Below, piece by piece: positions 67 through 42,354 of a stretch of 44,282 bases of DNA; positions within the stretch are counted from its first letter, which is position 1, and each line of letters opens with the position of its first letter. Under the pieces are notes generated by a model. That model searched no databases. It had not been told where the DNA came from and worked only from the letters and a program-made list of their open reading frames with translations. The translations under genes were made by a program, and so were the position numbers. Source of the DNA: a virus (Duplodnaviria > Caudoviricetes); the IMG/VR virus record IMGVR_UViG_3300024222_000003, positions 1 to 44,282 of that record. One strand, 5' to 3'.

Positions 67-936
67 CTAACGTACTGACGTGCTGTCGCCGACGACCCAG
101 TACAGCACGCGCGGCCCCGTCAGTCGCAAGTCGTCGACCATGTACTCGTGCGCTTTCGACTCATAGATCGGGTCGAGTCGAAACCCCGGCGCGACTGCGC
201 GACGCACCTCTCGCGCGTACGGGTAGCGCGTCAGCGCGTGGTACTCGAACGGCAGCCAGCCCGCGATCGCGTTGATCTCGCGCGTACGATCGTACCCCGC
301 GACCTGCAGCAGCACGACTCGACGAACGTGCGGGCAGTGCGCGCGCACCCCGAGCAGTATCCCCGCTGCAGTGATGCCCGCCCCGACCGGCACGACCACC
401 GTCTCGACCTCGCGCGGGATGTTGCGCGCTTGCTGCGACGTCGAGCCGAGTATCGCTGCAGAGTGGTCGCGCAGATTGATGCCAAACTTCACGTGGTAGG
501 CCGCGCCGTGGCAGCGCTGCCAGCTAGCGATCGCAGCAGTCAGGGACGTCTCGTATGCGACGCGCGCCGAGCAGTCGAGTGTCGTGTTGAAGCGCAGCGC
601 CGTGCGTAGCATGCGATGACGGTCGAGCGCCCCGCGCTGCGTCGTCGCGCCTATGAACAGCACCGTTCGAAGCCCGTACTCGTATGCGACTCGCGCAATG
701 ATGAGTCCTTGAGGAGAGTGCACACCCGTCGCCGTCAGCACGACCCCGTTCAGTCGTCGTCGAATATCGTCAGCGCTCGGGCCGAGTAGTTTGATTGCCT
801 GTCGCACCTTCCCGCCCGACAGCGGCACGTCGTCGAACGGAACGAACAGATCGTCGCGCTTGTAGTAAGTGCCGTCGTGCTGCTCGACGGGGGTCAGTTC
901 GTCGGGGTTAGTGATCACAGTTGCGAACTGTGGCAC
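67..936 (-). CDS. PLP-dependent enzyme, fold type II (ACC deaminase / D-cysteine desulfhydrase-like)
   Basis: KRDD..SGGKVRQ (Schiff-base Lys region), VPVGAGITAAG phosphate-binding loop and LDPIYESKA match this family. Confidence 0.85.
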   Translation of the reverse strand: MPQFATVITNPDELTPVEQHDGTYYKRDDLFVPFDDVPLSGGKVRQAIKLLGPSADDIRRRLNGVVLTATGVHSPQGLIIARVAYEYGLRTVLFIGATTQRGALDRHRMLRTALRFNTTLDCSARVAYETSLTAAIASWQRCHGAAYHVKFGINLRDHSAAILGSTSQQARNIPREVETVVVPVGAGITAAGILLGVRAHCPHVRRVVLLQVAGYDRTREINAIAGWLPFEYHALTRYPYAREVRRAVAPGFRLDPIYESKAHEYMVDDLRLTGPRVLYWVVGDSTSVR

Positions 937-949
937 ATGGATAGTTCAC

Positions 950-2413
950 ATGCCCGAGCAGCGTTCAACGTCAACACGAGCGCGCAAGCGTTCGTCAGCA
1001 TCCACCCCCGCGCCCGCGCCCGCACCCGAGCGAGACCCGTCGACTGACGCAGCAGTCTGGATGAGTCCCGACTTGCTGCAGCCGTGGGCCGACAACCCGC
1101 GCGACAACCACGACTCGGTTGCGCGCGTCGTCGCGAGCATCAAGCGGTTCGGGTTCGGCGCGCCGATCGTCGCGCGTCGCGAGAACCTCGAGATCATAGC
1201 GGGGCACACTCGATGGTTCGCAGCGCGTCAGCTGCAGCTCGTCAGCGTGCCCGTGCGCCTGCTCGACATCTCCGAGTACGAGGCGCATCTGCTCGCGCTC
1301 ACCGACAATCGACTGACCGAGCGCACCGAGTGGAGCGACAAGCTGCCCGAGCTGCTCGCGCGCTACGAGCTGTCAGACGTGCAGCTCGCAGGCTGGGACG
1401 ATCTGCCGATGCTGTCGCTCGCAGGCAGCGGCGCCGATGGCGAGCTCGGCGAGTCGACTGAACGCTCGCTCGCGTTCGACGTCTTCCCAGTCGCAATGAT
1501 CGCCGACGCGCAGGTCGAGTCGATGCTGAACGTGACACATGACGCTTACGCGCTGACGACTGGGGATGTGATGGTCGAGCTCAACCGCTGCGCGGCCGGC
1601 GGCAAGCCGCTGGTGGGCTGCGCTGACCGATGGTTCCCGCATCGCTATGACGTGCTCGCTGGCCAGTCGAAGCACACGCCCAACGATACGCTGCGCGATG
1701 CTGTCGCGCTGCGCGGGGTCGTCGAGATGTGCGCCAAGGTCGGGCGAGCGCCGAACTCAAGCGCGATCCTGAACGCGTCGCAGCTCTACCACGGGCGACA
1801 AGGCGCTCGACAGTTCCCGATACACGTCGCCCGCGATGTGTATGCGCGCTACTCGAGACAGAACGCGGCCGTGCTCGACCCGTGCGCCGGCTGGGGCGGG
1901 CGACTGCTCGGCTGGCTCTGCGCTCGCCAGGGCGGCACTTACTACGGGGTCGATGCGAGCTCGCAGACCGTCTCGTCATTCGGGCGCATGATTGGCGACC
2001 TCAACATTCACAACGCGACCATCGAGCACAGCGCTTTCGAGGACATCGAGTTCGAGCCCAACACGTTCGACTTCGCGTTCACGTCGCCGCCCTACTTCAA
2101 CGTCGAGCGCTACTCGGCCGACGCCGAGCAGTCGTGCGTGCGCTATCTCGATTACGACTCGTGGCGGCTGGGCTTCCTCGAGCCGCTCGTTCGACTCACT
2201 CTCCGTGCCCTGCGCCCCGGCTGCGCGTTCGCGCTGAACGTTAGCGACGCTCGCGAGAACCAGATCGCACGAGATGCGACAGCGATCGCTCGCGAGCTCG
2301 GCGCTGACATCGAACTGTCAGCCAAGATCGACGTCGGCGGCGGCGCGCCCGCTGGCAACATGGGCATGGTCGGCACAAAAGAAGATCTCATCCTGATGCG
2401 CAAACGGACATAA
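950..2413 (+). CDS. ParB/Srx N-terminal domain fused to an amino-(N4C/N6A) DNA methyltransferase-like domain
   Basis: NPRDN..SIKRFGF..PIV..IIAGHTR..DNR (ParB/Srx); VLDPCAGWGGRLLG (SAM binding) followed by FTSPPYF (catalytic motif IV). ATG950 chosen to avoid overlap with the divergent gene. Confidence 0.85.
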   Translation: MPEQRSTSTRARKRSSASTPAPAPAPERDPSTDAAVWMSPDLLQPWADNPRDNHDSVARVVASIKRFGFGAPIVARRENLEIIAGHTRWFAARQLQLVSVPVRLLDISEYEAHLLALTDNRLTERTEWSDKLPELLARYELSDVQLAGWDDLPMLSLAGSGADGELGESTERSLAFDVFPVAMIADAQVESMLNVTHDAYALTTGDVMVELNRCAAGGKPLVGCADRWFPHRYDVLAGQSKHTPNDTLRDAVALRGVVEMCAKVGRAPNSSAILNASQLYHGRQGARQFPIHVARDVYARYSRQNAAVLDPCAGWGGRLLGWLCARQGGTYYGVDASSQTVSSFGRMIGDLNIHNATIEHSAFEDIEFEPNTFDFAFTSPPYFNVERYSADAEQSCVRYLDYDSWRLGFLEPLVRLTLRALRPGCAFALNVSDARENQIARDATAIARELGADIELSAKIDVGGGAPAGNMGMVGTKEDLILMRKRT

Positions 2414-2417
2414 CAAG

Positions 2418-2843
2418 ATGAGACAGCGACGCAAGGCCAGCACACGCAGCGAGCTTACGCCCGAGATACACGCGAGCGTAGTCGCTGCGCTTCGAATGGG
2501 CGCATTCAAAAAACACGCAGCGCTGTCGAGCGGCATACCAGCGAGCACACTCGACTACTGGATAGCCGAGGGCAACCGGGGCAACGCGCCGTACGTCGCG
2601 TTCGCGACTGACTGCGAGCGCGCGATCGCTGAGGACGCAATGCGCAATCAGTCGATCATTACGCGCGCGAGCATGGGCAAAGTCGAAGGCGACTGGCGCG
2701 CTGCAGCGTGGAACCTCGAGAAGAAACATCCGAAGCTGTACGGGCGCATGGCCGAGCAGGCGAAGAAGGACGACGAGCGCGAGCGGCCATTCAGCCCCTG
2801 GAAGGTGATCGATGCCCCAGATGCGTTATCCAAACACAACTGA
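2418..2843 (+). CDS. Putative terminase small subunit
   Basis: N-terminal HTH-like segment (AALSSGIPASTLDYW) and DWRAAAWNLEKKHP motif seen in TerS-like proteins; lies upstream of TerL. Confidence 0.65.
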   Translation: MRQRRKASTRSELTPEIHASVVAALRMGAFKKHAALSSGIPASTLDYWIAEGNRGNAPYVAFATDCERAIAEDAMRNQSIITRASMGKVEGDWRAAAWNLEKKHPKLYGRMAEQAKKDDERERPFSPWKVIDAPDALSKHN

Positions 2844-3399
2844 GATCACGCCGATCATCCGCAGCGAAGGCCAGCGCATGTTTCTACATGTCGAGGGTTC
2901 ACTCGACGCGATAGCGCGCGAAGTCGGCGCGAAGGGAAAGCAGAGCATCAGCGAGTGGCGCTCGGGCCGTAAGATCCCGTCCATCGAGATGCGCGCGCGC
3001 ATTCAGTCAGCATTCGGCATACCCGCCGGCGCGTGGTCGAAGCGCCCTGCCGGCGCTGACGGCGTCGAAGCGACGAGCGTGCAGACACAAGAGGCCGAGG
3101 CACTGCCCAGCACGCTCGACGACTGTCTCGCGCTGCTCGCAGTCATTCGACGCGACCGCAAGCAGGACGGCCTACTCGCAGCAGAGCGCGTCAAACTGTC
3201 AGACGCGGAGGCGCGAATACTCGCACTGCGCGCGCGACTCGAGTCAGCGCACGAGCTCGCCGAAGATCGCTATGTGCGCGACCACCCCGCGTGGAAGCGC
3301 ATCGAGCGTCTACTCGCTGAGGCGCTCGAACCGTTCCCCGAGGCCGCGAAGGCCGTACACGCTGCACTGCTGCGCGCGCTGCGTGAGGTCGAACAGTGA
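2812..3399 (+). CDS. XRE-type HTH protein with helical C-terminus
   Basis: LDAIAREVG..QSISEWRSGRKIPS HTH pattern; stop overlaps the TerL start (GTGA). Confidence 0.65.
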   Translation: MPQMRYPNTTEITPIIRSEGQRMFLHVEGSLDAIAREVGAKGKQSISEWRSGRKIPSIEMRARIQSAFGIPAGAWSKRPAGADGVEATSVQTQEAEALPSTLDDCLALLAVIRRDRKQDGLLAAERVKLSDAEARILALRARLESAHELAEDRYVRDHPAWKRIERLLAEALEPFPEAAKAVHAALLRALREVEQ

Positions 3400-5057
3400 C
3401 CACATCGATCGCTGCAGAGGTCGAGGTCCGCCGCGGTCGACGCAGCGAGCCCGCGCGACTGTCGATGCTCGGCGCTTTGTTCGGCGTCGTCGCGCTCGTT
3501 CTCGAGCGCACGCTGCACATACGCTTCCCTGACCCCAAGTATCAGGCAGCGCCGATCGCGTTCGCGAACGACGTGCTCGGGGTCGACCCGTGGTCGCGAC
3601 AGGCCGAGATACTCGAGGCTGTGCGCGACTACGATCGCGTCGCCATCGCGTCAGGTCACAAGGTCGGCAAGAGTCACAGCGCGGCCATCATCGCGCTGTG
3701 GTTCTATTGCTCGTATCCAGACGCGCGGGTTGTGATGACGTCGACCACGAGTCGTCAGGTCGACCAGATACTTTGGCGCGAGCTGCGCATGATGCGCGCG
3801 CGCGGCGGGCGCTGCGTCGCTTGCAAAGCGCGCGACCCCGAGGCGCTACTGATACCCCGACCGTGCGACCACTCGACGCTCATCGAAGGCGAGATGGGCG
3901 AGCTGGCGCGTACGGGTCTCAAGTCGCAGGACTTCCGCGAGATCGTCGGTTTCACTGCGCGCGAGGCCGAGGCCGTCGCAGGCATCTCGGGCCGGCACTT
4001 GCTGTACATCGCAGACGAGGCGAGCGGCATCGGCGACGACATATTCGAAGCCATCGAAGGCAACCGCGGCGGCGGCGCCAAGCTCGTGCTGCTGGGCAAT
4101 CCCACGCGCAACGAAGGCACGTTCTATGAAGCTTTCACGAGCAAGCGTCATCTGTACAAGACACTACGCGTCAGCAGCGAGGAGTCGCCGAACGTAGTCG
4201 AAGGTCGCGCAGTGATCCCCGGCCTCGCAACGCGCGAGTGGATAGACGAGAAGCGCATCGAATGGGGCGCTGACAGCGCGCTGTACAAGGTGCGTGTGCT
4301 GGGTCAGCACGCCGAGCACGAGGACGCGAAGATATTCAGCGTTCACGCGATCGCGATGGCCGAGCAGCGATGGTCGACGACGCCCGCCGAGGGCCGGCTG
4401 TTTATCGGTCTCGACCCCGCGGGCGAGTCGGGCATGGGCGACGACACGTGCTTCGCAGCGCGCCGCGGGCTGAAACATCTAACACTGCGCATGCAGCGCG
4501 GTCTAAACGACGACGCGCATCTCGCGCATCTGCTGCTGCTTATCGGTGAGCTGAAACTGCCGCGCGAGACGCCTGTCGTCGTGCTCGACCGTGAGGGCGC
4601 GATCGGCTCGAGCCTGTTCGGGCGACTGCGCTCGTATCTCGAGACACACGGCAACGAGTTCGAGCTCGTCGCAGTGCGAGCGTCAGACCGCGCGCAGCGT
4701 AAGCCGATCGTGTACGACCGCATGCGCGACGAGCTCGCTGCGAATCTCGACCAGTGGTTCCGTGACGGCGGCGCGATACTCGAGGACGTGCGACTCGCGA
4801 ACGAGCTGCACGCACTCGAGTGGAAGCAAGCGATCAACGGCCGACTGAAACTCACGCCGAAGGACGTGCTGCGCAAAGCGCTCGGGCGCTCGCCCGACCG
4901 ATACGACGCGCTCGCCCTCAGCGTGTGGGAACCGCTGTCGCTGCAGGACGACCTCACCCCCGCCGCATCTGCAGCTGCTGCAGGCGAGGACTCGGGCGGC
5001 TACGCCGAGCAGACACTCGACCCTTACGCAGCGGGCAACATATGGCGCGGACGCTGA
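3396..5057 (+). CDS. terL: Terminase large subunit
   Basis: Walker A SGHKVGKS, Walker B YIADEASG, coupling motif LLGNP, nuclease motifs IGLDPAG..GDD and SPDRYDA. Confidence 0.93.
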   Translation: MTTSIAAEVEVRRGRRSEPARLSMLGALFGVVALVLERTLHIRFPDPKYQAAPIAFANDVLGVDPWSRQAEILEAVRDYDRVAIASGHKVGKSHSAAIIALWFYCSYPDARVVMTSTTSRQVDQILWRELRMMRARGGRCVACKARDPEALLIPRPCDHSTLIEGEMGELARTGLKSQDFREIVGFTAREAEAVAGISGRHLLYIADEASGIGDDIFEAIEGNRGGGAKLVLLGNPTRNEGTFYEAFTSKRHLYKTLRVSSEESPNVVEGRAVIPGLATREWIDEKRIEWGADSALYKVRVLGQHAEHEDAKIFSVHAIAMAEQRWSTTPAEGRLFIGLDPAGESGMGDDTCFAARRGLKHLTLRMQRGLNDDAHLAHLLLLIGELKLPRETPVVVLDREGAIGSSLFGRLRSYLETHGNEFELVAVRASDRAQRKPIVYDRMRDELAANLDQWFRDGGAILEDVRLANELHALEWKQAINGRLKLTPKDVLRKALGRSPDRYDALALSVWEPLSLQDDLTPAASAAAAGEDSGGYAEQTLDPYAAGNIWRGR

Positions 5058-29345: not shown

Positions 29346-29576
29346 TCAGCGCCTCAGTACCCCGAGCTGAATCAGCAGCTCGTCAGTCGCGTCTCGTGGC
29401 GTCGTGTCGCGCGCTTCGCGCTCGATGGCCGACATCAGCAGCGCGGCCGGGATCGCTGTCGTGCGCGCGCTGAGGTGCAGCACGGGCACGTTGTGCTTGC
29501 GAGCGAGCGCGATGCAACGCGTCCACGACATGCCCGTCGCCGCCATCGCGTTGCGCGCTGTGATGGTGACTACCAT
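29346..29576 (-). CDS. Small putative DNA-binding protein, possible excisionase
   Basis: 76 aa, winged-helix-like pattern, GGAGG RBS, near int; function inferred. Confidence 0.45.
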   Translation of the reverse strand: MVVTITARNAMAATGMSWTRCIALARKHNVPVLHLSARTTAIPAALLMSAIEREARDTTPRDATDELLIQLGVLRR

Positions 29577-30760
29577 GCGACCTCCGCTGCGACGCGCTGC
29601 GCGAGTGTTGTCTGTCGCTTCGAAGCGTCGGTGCGCAGCGCGCGCTCGATGCCCTTCAAGTTGCCCACGAGGGTCACTCGTTGCTTTGCGCGAGTCACTG
29701 CTGTGTAAAGCAGACTGCGCGTCAACATGCGCGAGTGCTGCGAGTGGACGACGACGACCACGTGCCCGTACTCGCTGCCCTGGGTCTTGTGCACCGTCAT
29801 CGCGTACGCGGGCACGAGCGCGCGCGCTTGCTCGGGCGTGTAGTCGACGTCGCGCCCGAGCTCGTCGTACCGCACGAGCACGTGGTGCGACTTGGGCACG
29901 ATACCGAGCACGACGCCGTTCTCGCCGTTCATGACGTCGAGCTTGTAGTCGTTGACCGTCTGCATAACGCGCATGCCCACGCGCAGCGGCTGGTCACCAG
30001 GCGTGCTCGGGCTGTCGGGGTTGAACACGGGGCCGCGCCCGAACACGAGCTCGTCAGGTGTCGTCGGCCCGTACGCGTTCAGGATCGGGTCGAGCGCGAT
30101 GTTCAGAGCGTCGACGCCCGCACTGCCGCTGTACTGGGGCGCGAGCACGACGAGGTTCGGGTCGGCCCGCGCGAGCGTCACCACGACGTCGCGCACCTCG
30201 TCAGCGTCGTCGACATCGATGTGCACCCCGTCGAGCTCGAGGCGCTCACCTCGCAAGATGCGCGGGGCGTTGCGTACGACCCACGACCCCGCGGCCGCAC
30301 GGTGCTGCGTCGTCAGTCGCGCGACGGGCACGCGGCCCGAGTCGATGAGGTCGCCGAAGAAACGCCCCTTGCCGACCGGGGGCAGCTGGTCAGCGTCCCC
30401 GATCAACACGAGTCGACTGCAGCACGACCCACGCAGCAGCGCGACAGCGAGCTCGTAGTCAATCATCGACGACTCGTCGACGAACACAGTGTCGACCTCG
30501 AGCGGGCACTCGGCCGTGACTGCGAACGTCCACCCCTGATAGCCGAGCAGTCGATGCAACGTGACAGCGGGCTGCTCGGTCACTGCGGCCATACGTCGCG
30601 CTGCTTTGCCCGTGGGCGCTGCGAGCGCGTACGACCCCGAGTGCTGCGCGAGCACGCTGCGCAGCGTCGTGGTCTTGCCCGAGCCCGGGGGCCCGGTCAT
30701 CACTGCGAGCTGCTCGCGTTGCATGATGTCGACTGCGTGTTGCTGGCTGGCGTCTAACAC
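29570..30760 (-). CDS. RecD2-like SF1B helicase, motor half
   Basis: GPPGSGKTT, VDESSM, GDADQLPPVG, AYAMTVHKTQGSEY and LYTAVTRAK; GTG30760 has a GGAGAGGA RBS. Confidence 0.9.
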   Translation of the reverse strand: MLDASQQHAVDIMQREQLAVMTGPPGSGKTTTLRSVLAQHSGSYALAAPTGKAARRMAAVTEQPAVTLHRLLGYQGWTFAVTAECPLEVDTVFVDESSMIDYELAVALLRGSCCSRLVLIGDADQLPPVGKGRFFGDLIDSGRVPVARLTTQHRAAAGSWVVRNAPRILRGERLELDGVHIDVDDADEVRDVVVTLARADPNLVVLAPQYSGSAGVDALNIALDPILNAYGPTTPDELVFGRGPVFNPDSPSTPGDQPLRVGMRVMQTVNDYKLDVMNGENGVVLGIVPKSHHVLVRYDELGRDVDYTPEQARALVPAYAMTVHKTQGSEYGHVVVVVHSQHSRMLTRSLLYTAVTRAKQRVTLVGNLKGIERALRTDASKRQTTLAQRVAAEVAW

Positions 30761-30924
30761 TTGGGTATCCTCTCCGCGTATTGGTCGATCACTCCTGCGA
30801 CACTGCGCAGCACGGCGAGCACGCGCAGCAGTATGGCCATGTTGAAGTTGACGTCCTCGCCGCGCTCTGCCTGGTCGAGCAGAGCAGCAGCGAGGCGCAG
30901 CTGCTTTGCGGCGCACCTAAGCAC
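30754..30924 (-). CDS. Small helical protein between the two RecD2 halves (56 aa)
   Basis: VLRCAAKQLRLAAALLDQAERGEDVNFNMAILLRVLAVLRS..; AGGA RBS; overlaps both neighbours. Confidence 0.55.
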   Translation of the reverse strand: MLRCAAKQLRLAAALLDQAERGEDVNFNMAILLRVLAVLRSVAGVIDQYAERIPKC

Positions 30925-31813
30925 TGTCGATCCTGTCTCGCACACGGCGCGCGACTTCTGATTCGAGCGCGTCAGTCGCGATGCGGTACATGCGCACCGA
31001 GTCGCGCTCGAGGATGACGCCAGCGTGCAGCGCTTCGCCCACGCCCCTCATGATGACGCTCGTCGGCAGTGCGAGCAGCGCGCGCGCCTCGCGACGAAAG
31101 TCACCCGTGTCCATGTAGACGTGCCCCGCCAGCTCGTGCTCGCGCAGTGCGTGCAGCAGGCCGGCCTCGACACGCAGCGGCGACTCGCGCGAGATACCCG
31201 ACCGGGCAGCAACGACCTCGGCCCGCTGCCATCCGAACCCGCGCACGTCCTCGCAGAGTCGATACGGGTTCTGTCGTATCGCTGCGACTGCAGCGCGCGG
31301 CGAGTCCCACGCTACGAGACACTGTGTGATCTGACTTGAGGTCAGACCCCATGCGTGCAGCTGCACGTAGTCGTCCTTGTCCCGTTTCTCGGCGCTGTAG
31401 GTCTCGTGAATCTGCAGCGCCATGACGAGCGACACGCCTGTGACCTGCGTCAGTCGGTCGCACTCGTGCTCGATGATTCGCCATAGCTCGGTGACGCTGC
31501 CGCCGGCGACTTGGTCAATCAGCGCCCGAGCTCGCGCGTCGCCGATGCCGGGCAGGACCTCGGCCATCCACGCAGCAGCCCCGTCGATGCTTAGCGGGGC
31601 GCGCAGCGTCGCTGACTTGACCTTGAACTGTTCGCCCCATTTGGGATCGCGCTCGAGGCTGCCGTGCGCTTCGACGGCGTCACCCGCTCGGGCGCCGGGC
31701 AGCGTGCCCACGATCGCGAGCGTTGCGCCCTCGTCCGTGCGCAGCGTCCCGACGCCCCAGCCACTGAGCCCGCGAGGCCGCCATGCGGTCAGCTCGCCTT
31801 TGACTTGCTTCAT
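30917..31813 (-). CDS. RecD2-like N-terminal half (OB-fold + HhH domains)
   Basis: PKWGEQFKV, LPGIG..RA, NPYRL.EDVRGFGW..A and R.EAGL...L....GH.Y match RecD2 N-terminal domains. Confidence 0.85.
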   Translation of the reverse strand: MKQVKGELTAWRPRGLSGWGVGTLRTDEGATLAIVGTLPGARAGDAVEAHGSLERDPKWGEQFKVKSATLRAPLSIDGAAAWMAEVLPGIGDARARALIDQVAGGSVTELWRIIEHECDRLTQVTGVSLVMALQIHETYSAEKRDKDDYVQLHAWGLTSSQITQCLVAWDSPRAAVAAIRQNPYRLCEDVRGFGWQRAEVVAARSGISRESPLRVEAGLLHALREHELAGHVYMDTGDFRREARALLALPTSVIMRGVGEALHAGVILERDSVRMYRIATDALESEVARRVRDRIDSA

Positions 31814-39997: not shown

Positions 39998-40753
39998 GTG
40001 TCTCGCGCGCGAGCGTGCTCGATGACGCTGCAGCACTGCAGCTCGCACACGCTCGCGCAGCGGGTGCGGGCCGAGCTCGGGCGCGTCGACAACGTCATCG
40101 CAGATCCGCCGTTCTCAGAGCGCGTCAGTCGAGGCAGCTCGAACGGTCGACGACGCGACAGCTCGACGGGCGTGTCGACGCGCGGTCTCGAGTACGCGTC
40201 GTGGTCGAGCGACGACGTTCGCGCGTTCGTCGCTGACTGGGCGCCGCTGTGCGCGCGCTGGTTCGCCGTGCTTTGCAGCCACGATCAAATACATACGTAC
40301 GAGCGCGAGTTCGCGAACGCGAAGCGCTACGTGTTCGCGCCCGTACCGTGCGTTGTCACTGGCTCGAACGTGCGGCTGTGCGGCGACGGGCCGTCGAGCT
40401 GGACGAGCTATCTCGTCGCGAGTCGGCCGCACGCTATGACGCCGCGCTCGGGCACGCTGCGCGGCGGGTACTGGGGTCCGCGCGAACGGCTGCTCGTCAG
40501 CGGGGGCAAGCCGCTCTGGCTGATGCGCGATATCGTGCGCGACTACTCGCGCCCCGGCGAGCTCGTGTGCGACCCATGCGCGGGCTCGGGGACGACGCTG
40601 CTCGCAGCGCGCATCGAGCGTCGAGCGTTCGTCGGCTGCGAAGCGGACGCAGGCAGGTTCGAGCGTGCTCGCGCACGACTAACGCGACGTACTGACAAGC
40701 GCGCAGTACACAGCGAACGCGAGCACGACGCACCAGCCGACAAAGATCGCTAA
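39998..40753 (+). CDS. Orphan DNA amino-methyltransferase (beta class)
   Basis: IADPPF precedes KP..LM..IV..YSRPGELVCDPCAGSGTT; start may be ATG40022. Confidence 0.85.
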   Translation: MSRARACSMTLQHCSSHTLAQRVRAELGRVDNVIADPPFSERVSRGSSNGRRRDSSTGVSTRGLEYASWSSDDVRAFVADWAPLCARWFAVLCSHDQIHTYEREFANAKRYVFAPVPCVVTGSNVRLCGDGPSSWTSYLVASRPHAMTPRSGTLRGGYWGPRERLLVSGGKPLWLMRDIVRDYSRPGELVCDPCAGSGTTLLAARIERRAFVGCEADAGRFERARARLTRRTDKRAVHSEREHDAPADKDR

Positions 40754-42271: not shown

Positions 42272-42354
42272 TACTGCTTTCGTTCTCGCGTCAGCGACGC
42301 GCTGACTTGATATCTAAACAGTATCAGAACTGCAGCACGCGTCAATGTGACTGC
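42272..42354 (-). promoter_or_regulatory. Repeat promoter-hairpin-RBS unit A
   Basis: TTGACG-N16-TACTGT with extended TGn; GTCAGCG stem at 42290-42306. Confidence 0.8.

Follow-up and report, generated by a model that had tools for sequence, protein, structure and literature searches.

The window analysed here (the whole 44,282-nucleotide stretch of IMG/VR virus record IMGVR_UViG_3300024222_000003) encodes at its left end a pyridoxal phosphate (PLP)-dependent enzyme and a protein in which a ParB/Srx domain is fused to an S-adenosylmethionine (SAM)-dependent transferase of the amino-methylase type with an SPPY motif. These two genes form a single module, as the initial annotation had supposed, on the strength of their co-occurrence at the genome level, their fusion to one another in other genomes and their joint absence from relatives of the phage; the module is real and widespread, and apparently unstudied. 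It probably makes a linked non-methyl modification of one kind or another. As to its chemistry, we tentatively favour the first of two options raised in the initial annotation, a two-step route in which the aminocarboxypropyl arm of SAM would be transferred to an amine of a DNA base and there decarboxylated by the PLP enzyme; this is a prediction, and it draws on the linkage of the genes, the family of the PLP enzyme and an invariant arginine in the transferase.

The PLP enzyme and its transferase partner

The two genes had been described as lying head to head ahead of the terminase, an arrangement confirmed by the open reading frames (ORFs) and by Pfam and PHROG matches, as follows.

67..936, minus strand: PLP enzyme ORF, 289 amino acids (aa); the start may be the GTG at 918
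950..2413, plus strand: ParB_N-transferase fusion ORF, 487 aa; the start may be the ATG at 1061
1064..1309, plus strand: ParB/Srx N-terminal domain (Pfam PF02195, aa 39-120)
1520..2413, plus strand: SAM-dependent amino-methyltransferase-like domain in which the SAM motifs precede the catalytic motifs; predicted aminocarboxypropyl transferase
2418..2843, plus strand: terS, terminase small subunit (phrog_4102, E 2.6e-18)
3396..5057, plus strand: terL, terminase large subunit (phrog_2, E 1.3e-26)

The PLP ORF narrowly misses the Pfam PALP cut-off (E 1.9e-8; 34.5 bits, cut-off 35) and contains the motifs KRDD (at aa 26), GGKVR (including the Schiff-base Lys43, codon at nt 810-808), HSPQ, YESK and WVVG. 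Its best PHROG match is to phrog_3650 (E 3.8e-27), the family of phage ViI gp226, which itself matches at 2.5e-241, and a tblastn search with the protein finds ViI Vi01_182/orf00226 (E 3e-5). Identity to gp226 is 23 %, with Lys43 aligned to gp226 Lys92 and with SPQ, Tyr128, YExK and WxVG common to both. Amino acids on DNA are decarboxylated by gp226 and by M6 gp52, enzymes that require a free amine, and Lys92 is the Schiff-base lysine of gp226 (PMC8989533; this and the other papers cited, apart from PMC4472886, are represented by excerpts). By its sequence the window enzyme is a member of the gp226 family, and we predict that it decarboxylates a base-linked amino acid.

The nearest solved relatives are 1-aminocyclopropane-1-carboxylate (ACC) deaminase and D-cysteine desulfhydrase (profile matches to 1J0A at E 9e-9 and to DcyD at E 1e-6); phmmer gives no match in the PDB. 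Both identifications were considered and rejected, the scores being 37.2 bits for a cut-off of 289.4 (TIGR01275) and 26.4 for one of 550. That the gene is not a plain member of either group, a possibility with which the initial annotation had reckoned, is upheld by the gp226 PHROG, by the equivalence of Lys43 and Lys92 and by these scores far under the curated cut-offs. A locus search with the single PLP sequence found nothing and an alignment-based search was needed; 393 homologues were found. There are 333 matches at E 1e-3 in 50,697 annotated phage records, nearly all, among the matches listed, in ViI-like phages of 150-165 kb, and none in a search of plasmids.

Motif I of the transferase (DPCAGWGGR, aa 310-318, nt 1877-1903) ends in Arg318, where canonical N4-cytosine/N6-adenine DNA methylases have a Thr or a hydrophobic residue, and the SPPY motif (aa 379-382, nt 2084-2095) is followed by the invariant Glu386 and Tyr388. 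All 37 aligned homologues share the motif-I Asp, Gly and Arg and the pattern PPYxxxExY. Of 95 distinct motif pairs of the transferase type, 90 have the motif-I Arg, eight residues past the Asp, and five ordinary methylases from the same loci all lack it; the remaining five pairs belong to fusion proteins where closer inspection does reveal the Arg, and 56 of 57 fusions carry it. An AlphaFold model of the domain (pLDDT 91.6) has the class I Rossmann SAM fold. Foldseek returns no close structure, with best TM-scores of about 0.5 or less and the RNA methylases Trm11 and METTL5 ranking high, and the match to Pfam N6_N4_Mtase reaches 20.6 bits, the cut-off being 26.7.

Linkage of the two genes

The survey of PLP-bearing genomes covered 32 of 50 records, 29 of them from IMG/VR. 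A transferase is encoded in 21 of these 29 (ten of the 21 positives are not rows of the profile), including every one of the eight records with a completeness of 90 % or more and of the 19 with 20 % or more; the eight without one are all at most 16 % complete. The transferase is also present in phage AlanGrant, and absent from ViI and Montesquieu. At the level of single loci, it lies in the fetched DNA of 35 of 92 PLP groups (80 % identity), within 300 bp in 23, and among bacterial and archaeal assemblies with the PLP gene it is matched in 12 of 21 (21 of 23 loci covered; two matches partial).

The two activities are also joined in single polypeptides: among 59 longer PLP homologues, 57 include the transferase as well. 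In 33 of these the PLP domain is nested in the transferase and separates its SAM-binding half from its catalytic half, in 21 it follows the transferase and in three it precedes it. Gene product 70 of the cultured phage Pam4 is a nested fusion of this kind, and ZS04 gp7 is a split transferase whose insert has only a weak PLP match. Other cultured carriers are the mycobacteriophages AlanGrant and Vincenzo (gp1 and gp2). Among relatives recognized by terminase or portal (33 of 54 loci searched) there is no PLP gene and no real transferase match, one being marginal (E 9e-4), and none of 14 complete relative genomes has either gene. Since both genes are absent together from these relatives, both come and go together within the phage family.

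In the reverse direction, where the survey covered 50 of 80 transferase records, a PLP gene was found in five, and in one of the ten that are near-complete, an underestimate in that the short divergent PLP gene of locus L229 was missed; the abundance of the transferase is estimated at about 4500 stretches in IMG/VR. Presence of the PLP gene clearly implies that of the transferase and not vice versa, an asymmetry as expected of a tailoring enzyme acting after a first step: if transfer precedes decarboxylation, it is understandable that the transferase occurs by itself and that the PLP enzyme depends on it.

The initial annotation recognized neither synthesis of 5-hydroxymethyldeoxyuridine (5hmdU) nor an amino-acid:DNA transferase in this genome, and these absences are borne out. 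No match to aGPT-Pplase2 (PF18724) exceeds the cut-off in the window or in any of the 31 PLP records searched besides ViI and Montesquieu, and the Montesquieu aGPT-Pplase2 protein used as a query finds ViI (5e-21) and not the window, genome G002 or AlanGrant. The thymidylate-synthase family, to which dUMP hydroxymethylase belongs, is missing from all 17 carriers searched and detected in both thymidine-pathway control phages; the window has no homologue of it. Among the 56 window ORFs there is no match to TET/JBP and no Pfam match to a 5hmdU DNA kinase, for which the search with a presumed kinase as query had no positive control. Conversely, ViI and Montesquieu have the thymidine pathway and no SPPY enzyme. 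In a 35-row tree of PLP enzymes the two from thymidine-pathway phages fall among those linked to transferases, both on long branches, and AlanGrant gp2 is sister to the Montesquieu enzyme (support 98/91). Because the carriers lack the thymidine pathway, ViI and Montesquieu lack the SPPY enzyme and the tree is intermixed, one predicted decarboxylase family works with two distinct upstream enzymes. We note that the Montesquieu gene, in MONT_42-40 (L162:4943-7453), is labelled ACC deaminase and lies in a thymidine-hypermodification cluster beside aGPT-Pplase2; this label and that of a neighbouring 'ABC transporter' look like misannotations.

Several other settings of the PLP gene were observed. 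A clade of short divergent PLP genes adjoins the transferase (L203:6130-6915, L229:6798-7499 and L256:3998-4753); the L229 member matches phrog_7093 (E 4e-35) and stands in the order ParB-transferase, PLP, helix-turn-helix protein, likely packaging genes. In L014:6642-9888 a gene for a TET-associated glycosyltransferase (TAGT) lies directly upstream of the PLP and transferase genes, hinting at combined modifications. In bacterial island-like regions (L130, L133, L143 and the Bacteroidales loci L274-L281) the PLP gene is found near genes for type I restriction-modification, an OLD-like nuclease and IrrE-like proteins, and a transferase is in many cases not close by.

Proposed chemistry and its alternatives

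The 3-amino-3-carboxypropyl group is the arm of SAM that bears its alpha-amino acid, and the sole constant partner of the PLP enzyme uses SAM together with an amine-activating SPPY motif, which points to aminocarboxypropyl transfer. In the first step the SPPY domain would move this arm to the exocyclic amine of a base, either N4 of cytosine or N6 of adenine, and in the second the gp226-family enzyme would decarboxylate it to leave a positively charged 3-aminopropyl base, while the ParB domain would aim the enzyme or couple modification to DNA near packaging. DNA is suggested as the substrate by motif IV, by the family and by the packaging or replication genes that surround the module. Transfer of a long arm rather than a methyl is suggested by the need of the PLP enzyme for a free alpha-amino acid and by the invariant Arg of the SAM loop; our guess, by analogy with the corresponding Arg of CmoX, is that Arg318 might hold the SAM carboxylate. 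The sequence of the two reactions is likewise a proposal, as is the base on which they act.

More tentatively still, the broad viral 'N4/N6 methylase' family with the motif-I Arg and PPYxxxExY, comprising the IMG/VR stretches estimated above, may consist of SAM aminocarboxypropyl transferases for DNA, whose handle is then decarboxylated by a PLP enzyme or tailored by GNAT or amide-forming enzymes with no pre-modified nucleotide. In four of 45 groups (L185, L190, L227 and L248) the transferase adjoins a GNAT acetyltransferase gene, and genes for a Mom-family protein, an Asn-synthase and a SAM synthetase are each next to it in a single case, counts that have no background rate; these neighbours fit an amine or carboxyl handle.

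Several observations weigh against the two-step route. The nearest solved sequences to the transferase (14 matches) are beta-class DNA amino-methylases, matched in permuted order, and it retains their normal SPPY motif; no aminocarboxypropyl transferase occurs among these 14 or among the Foldseek matches listed, a class that itself comprises several unrelated groups (PMC10491745). The control set for the motif-I Arg is five proteins only, and the GNAT signal has the want of a background rate just mentioned. Where a PLP group has 3 kb or more of DNA on each side, a transferase lies in the fetched locus in only 19 of 41 cases, and nine of the 21 bacterial and archaeal assemblies have no match to one (their completeness is not given). 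The PF18724 search, which matched ViI, missed the annotated transferase of Montesquieu and so is not fully sensitive. Eight of the 11 carriers examined are still almost without 3-10 six-base palindromes (one is avoided in the window, none in G001 and G002), so restriction pressure has not been lifted, which argues against broad protection; the mark is likely to be site-limited rather than genome-wide, or to serve packaging or a specific defence. Finally, every chemical step of the route is itself a deduction.

That the SPPY domain is a plain N4-methylcytosine or N6-methyladenine DNA methylase, linked to the PLP enzyme and separate from it in purpose, seems unlikely. It would suit the SPPY motif, the automatic N4-cytosine methylase annotations, the abundance of transferases without a PLP gene and the ordinary character of ParB-methylase fusions before terS, but it leaves the fusions, the nesting and the complete co-occurrence in the near-complete genomes unexplained. 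A methyl group, moreover, offers the PLP enzyme no amino acid, and the ordinary methylases in these loci have neither the motif-I Arg nor a PLP fusion.

It is rather unlikely that the steps run in reverse, with the PLP enzyme decarboxylating free SAM and the transferase then moving aminopropyl from decarboxylated SAM. Nesting of the PLP domain in the SAM-binding domain of 33 proteins would suit such a hand-over of cofactor, PLP-less transferases could draw on decarboxylated SAM of the host, and the reverse order is a possibility for MccD and MccE as well (PMC10491745), a further point against the order we propose. Against it, the characterized relatives act on amino acids linked to DNA (PMC8989533), and the Arg that may bind the carboxylate is kept equally in PLP-linked and PLP-less transferases.

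Quite unlikely, in our view, is an alternative in which an aminocarboxypropyl or other amino-acid arm is installed and the PLP enzyme then acts on it by a different reaction, for example gamma-elimination or deamination, so that the mark is removed or a different adduct results. The lyase character of the nearest solved relatives and the low identity to gp226 would allow this, as would a substrate arm presumably one carbon longer than serine, but the motifs and the lysine match those of the decarboxylating gp226.

The same two steps acting on RNA, protein or a small molecule are improbable. The RNA methylases high in the fold search, the restriction sites still avoided in many carriers and the RNA ligase genes nearby in L014 and in L247 would be in keeping with such a substrate; the transferase is nevertheless nearest in sequence to DNA amino-methylases, may be fused to ParB, and is placed among terminase or DNA-replication genes and beside TAGT and 2-oxoglutarate-iron oxygenase genes.

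The ParB domain of the window fusion (ParB_N, aa 39-120, E 2.2e-8) has the motif GHTR at aa 85 (nt 1202-1213). Some ParB/Srx proteins, SbnI and SerK, are serine kinases paired with fold-type-II PLP enzymes of beta-replacement such as SbnA, and the second option of the initial annotation was that a kinase of this kind feeds a PLP beta-replacement onto a base. Both folds are indeed encoded here. Yet Pfam detects ParB_N in just six of 30 PLP-linked transferases (and not in AlanGrant gp1, though this is annotated as ParB-like), the constant partner of the PLP enzyme is the SPPY domain, and relative G114, which has no PLP gene, carries ahead of terS a ParB domain 57 % identical to that of the window and joined to an ordinary methylase of the beta class; ParB-dependent phosphorylation is accordingly disfavoured and very improbable. 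The resemblance to the ParB-N6/N4 methylase fusions of phrog_498 lies in a ParB_N domain ahead of a methylase directly before terS, as in G114, whereas the ordinary fusions lack both the motif-I Arg and a PLP partner and have the catalytic motifs before the SAM motifs (beta order), and the window enzyme has the SAM motifs first, the Arg and PPYxxxExY. A role for ParB in directing modification at packaging has been proposed (PMC8256090), and the domain is likely to be an accessory for DNA targeting or packaging coupling that is dispensable for the chemistry. Least probable of all is that the PLP gene is an ordinary metabolic ACC deaminase or D-cysteine desulfhydrase, as automatic names and the profile matches would have it, given the scores far below both cut-offs, an SPQ loop in place of SNH/QSN and the tie to the transferase.

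As a target for the module the initial annotation suggested the CC/GG context avoided in this genome, and proposed as a check whether carriers share the depletion. CC/GG is depleted throughout the window (observed/expected 0.54; 0.39-0.61 across 8-kb blocks). The values of the three carriers of the same family (0.54-0.57) are lower than those of 14 module-less relatives (0.60-0.93, two from the first 40 kb), and CC/GG is the sole word of 492 lower in all three than in all 14, by a small margin and, with G001 and G002 forming one lineage, on a single lineage independent of the window. The range is 0.44-0.72 in the other high-GC carriers and 0.76-1.39 in carrier loci of low GC content. The depletion is thus shared by the three same-family carriers, which have lower values than the module-less relatives, and does not follow the module more widely, those relatives being depleted too and low-GC carriers mostly not. 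CC/GG depletion is mainly a lineage trait, to which the module may add a small effect, and CC/GG is an unproven target of modification. A rank test (p 0.002) is confounded by mixed regions and phage types and is not relied on, and GGA/TCC depletion (0.48) was rejected as a signal of the module, G001 and G002, with the closest transferases (59-60 %), showing 0.99-1.01. Near-total avoidance of 7-10 six-base palindromes is seen in G003, G004, G005 and G007, in contrast to the window; CTCGAG is found 0 times in G003 where 126 are expected.

Genome setting, known systems and implications

The window is a complete circular 44 kb genome of a temperate phage with a 27-base terminal repeat, and encodes an integrase and Mu-like portal, capsid and baseplate proteins. 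The PLP and fusion genes are divergent, with 13 bp between their longest starts and 142 bp between the alternative starts GTG 918 and ATG 1061, and a GTG at 869 is a possible earlier start of the fusion gene that would overlap the PLP gene; the transferase stop lies 5 bp from the terS start. Neither a sigma-70 promoter match nor inverted repeats marking an inversion of the PLP gene were found in positions 1-2600. The divergent layout is not conserved, the PLP gene being followed by the ParB-transferase gene on a single strand in L005, L008, L009 and L010 and separated from it by about 17 kb in G001 and G002. In the closest relatives, where the ParB-transferase is about 17 kb off, the place between the PLP gene and terS is occupied by another methylase, which has a DPPW motif (L003:3316-4107, plus strand) and which we take to be MT-A70-like.

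Elsewhere in the window, a further DNA methylase, of the ordinary beta class with DPPF and with a Thr at the end of motif I, is encoded apart from the module at positions 39998-40753 (plus strand). A RecD2-like helicase is represented by two abutting ORFs in the same frame (29570-30916 and 30917-31813, minus strand) with one stop codon between them, which may be due to a split gene, to read-through or to an error in the sequence. In the gene-poor right end a 15-base motif, CGTCAATGTGACTGC, occurs four times without a mismatch, at 42340, 42875, 43265 and 43999, two of the copies being inside a 72-base repeat of 92 % identity and hairpins lying near; the copies are likely to be operator or promoter sites.

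Three known systems resemble the module in part. With ViI gp226 and M6 gp52 (PMC8989533) the PLP enzyme has in common the gp226 family, the Schiff-base Lys, the motifs and, presumably, a base-linked amino-acid substrate; the window has no 5hmdU synthase or amino-acid:DNA transferase, and the partner is instead an SPPY enzyme that depends on SAM, which means that the base, the linkage and the amino-acid donor must differ from those of ViI and M6. In microcin C synthesis MccD and MccE, a methyltransferase-fold enzyme and a PLP decarboxylase, add an aminopropyl group from SAM (PMC10491745), and in both cases acetyltransferases are found near some loci. The MccD/MccE substrate is a small molecule, however, whereas the window pairs a DNA amino-methylase SPPY scaffold with a fold-type-II PLP enzyme; homology to MccD or MccE was not seen among the matches, to which no dedicated test was added. 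The phage protein CmoX, a homologue of DNA methyltransferases, is an enzyme of the C5 type (motif SPPC) that uses carboxy-SAM, with an Arg for the carboxylate and tailoring by an amide ligase (PMC12783734). The CmoA/CmoX/CmoY system shares with the module a non-methyl transfer from a SAM cofactor, the carboxylate Arg (as proposed here), an adjoining tailoring enzyme and ParB fusions, and differs from it in the SPPC motif, carboxy-SAM and the amide ligase, the window enzyme being of the SPPY amino type with a PLP partner and no CmoA seen.

The open full-text literature, with subscription papers and supplements outside its scope, yielded in the excerpts seen no description of a PLP-SPPY pair or of an aminopropyl or aminocarboxypropyl DNA base. 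The module is not described in the excerpts of PMC13444090, PMC13458397, PMC5463345 and a 2023 glycosyltransferase preprint, nor in PMC4472886.

Cultured carriers and close non-carrier relatives exist, making the module cheaply testable. If the two-step route is correct, it would provide a new DNA base, aminocarboxypropyl- or aminopropyl-cytosine or -adenine, by a two-enzyme route requiring SAM only, and with it a genetically encodable primary amine on DNA useful for labelling. It would also explain the gp226-like PLP genes, often labelled ACC deaminase, in phages that lack the thymidine pathway, and thousands of viral 'methylases' would need re-annotation. Should the reading extend to the broad family, these enzymes would represent a whole undescribed branch of DNA hypermodification in which no pre-modified nucleotide is required.

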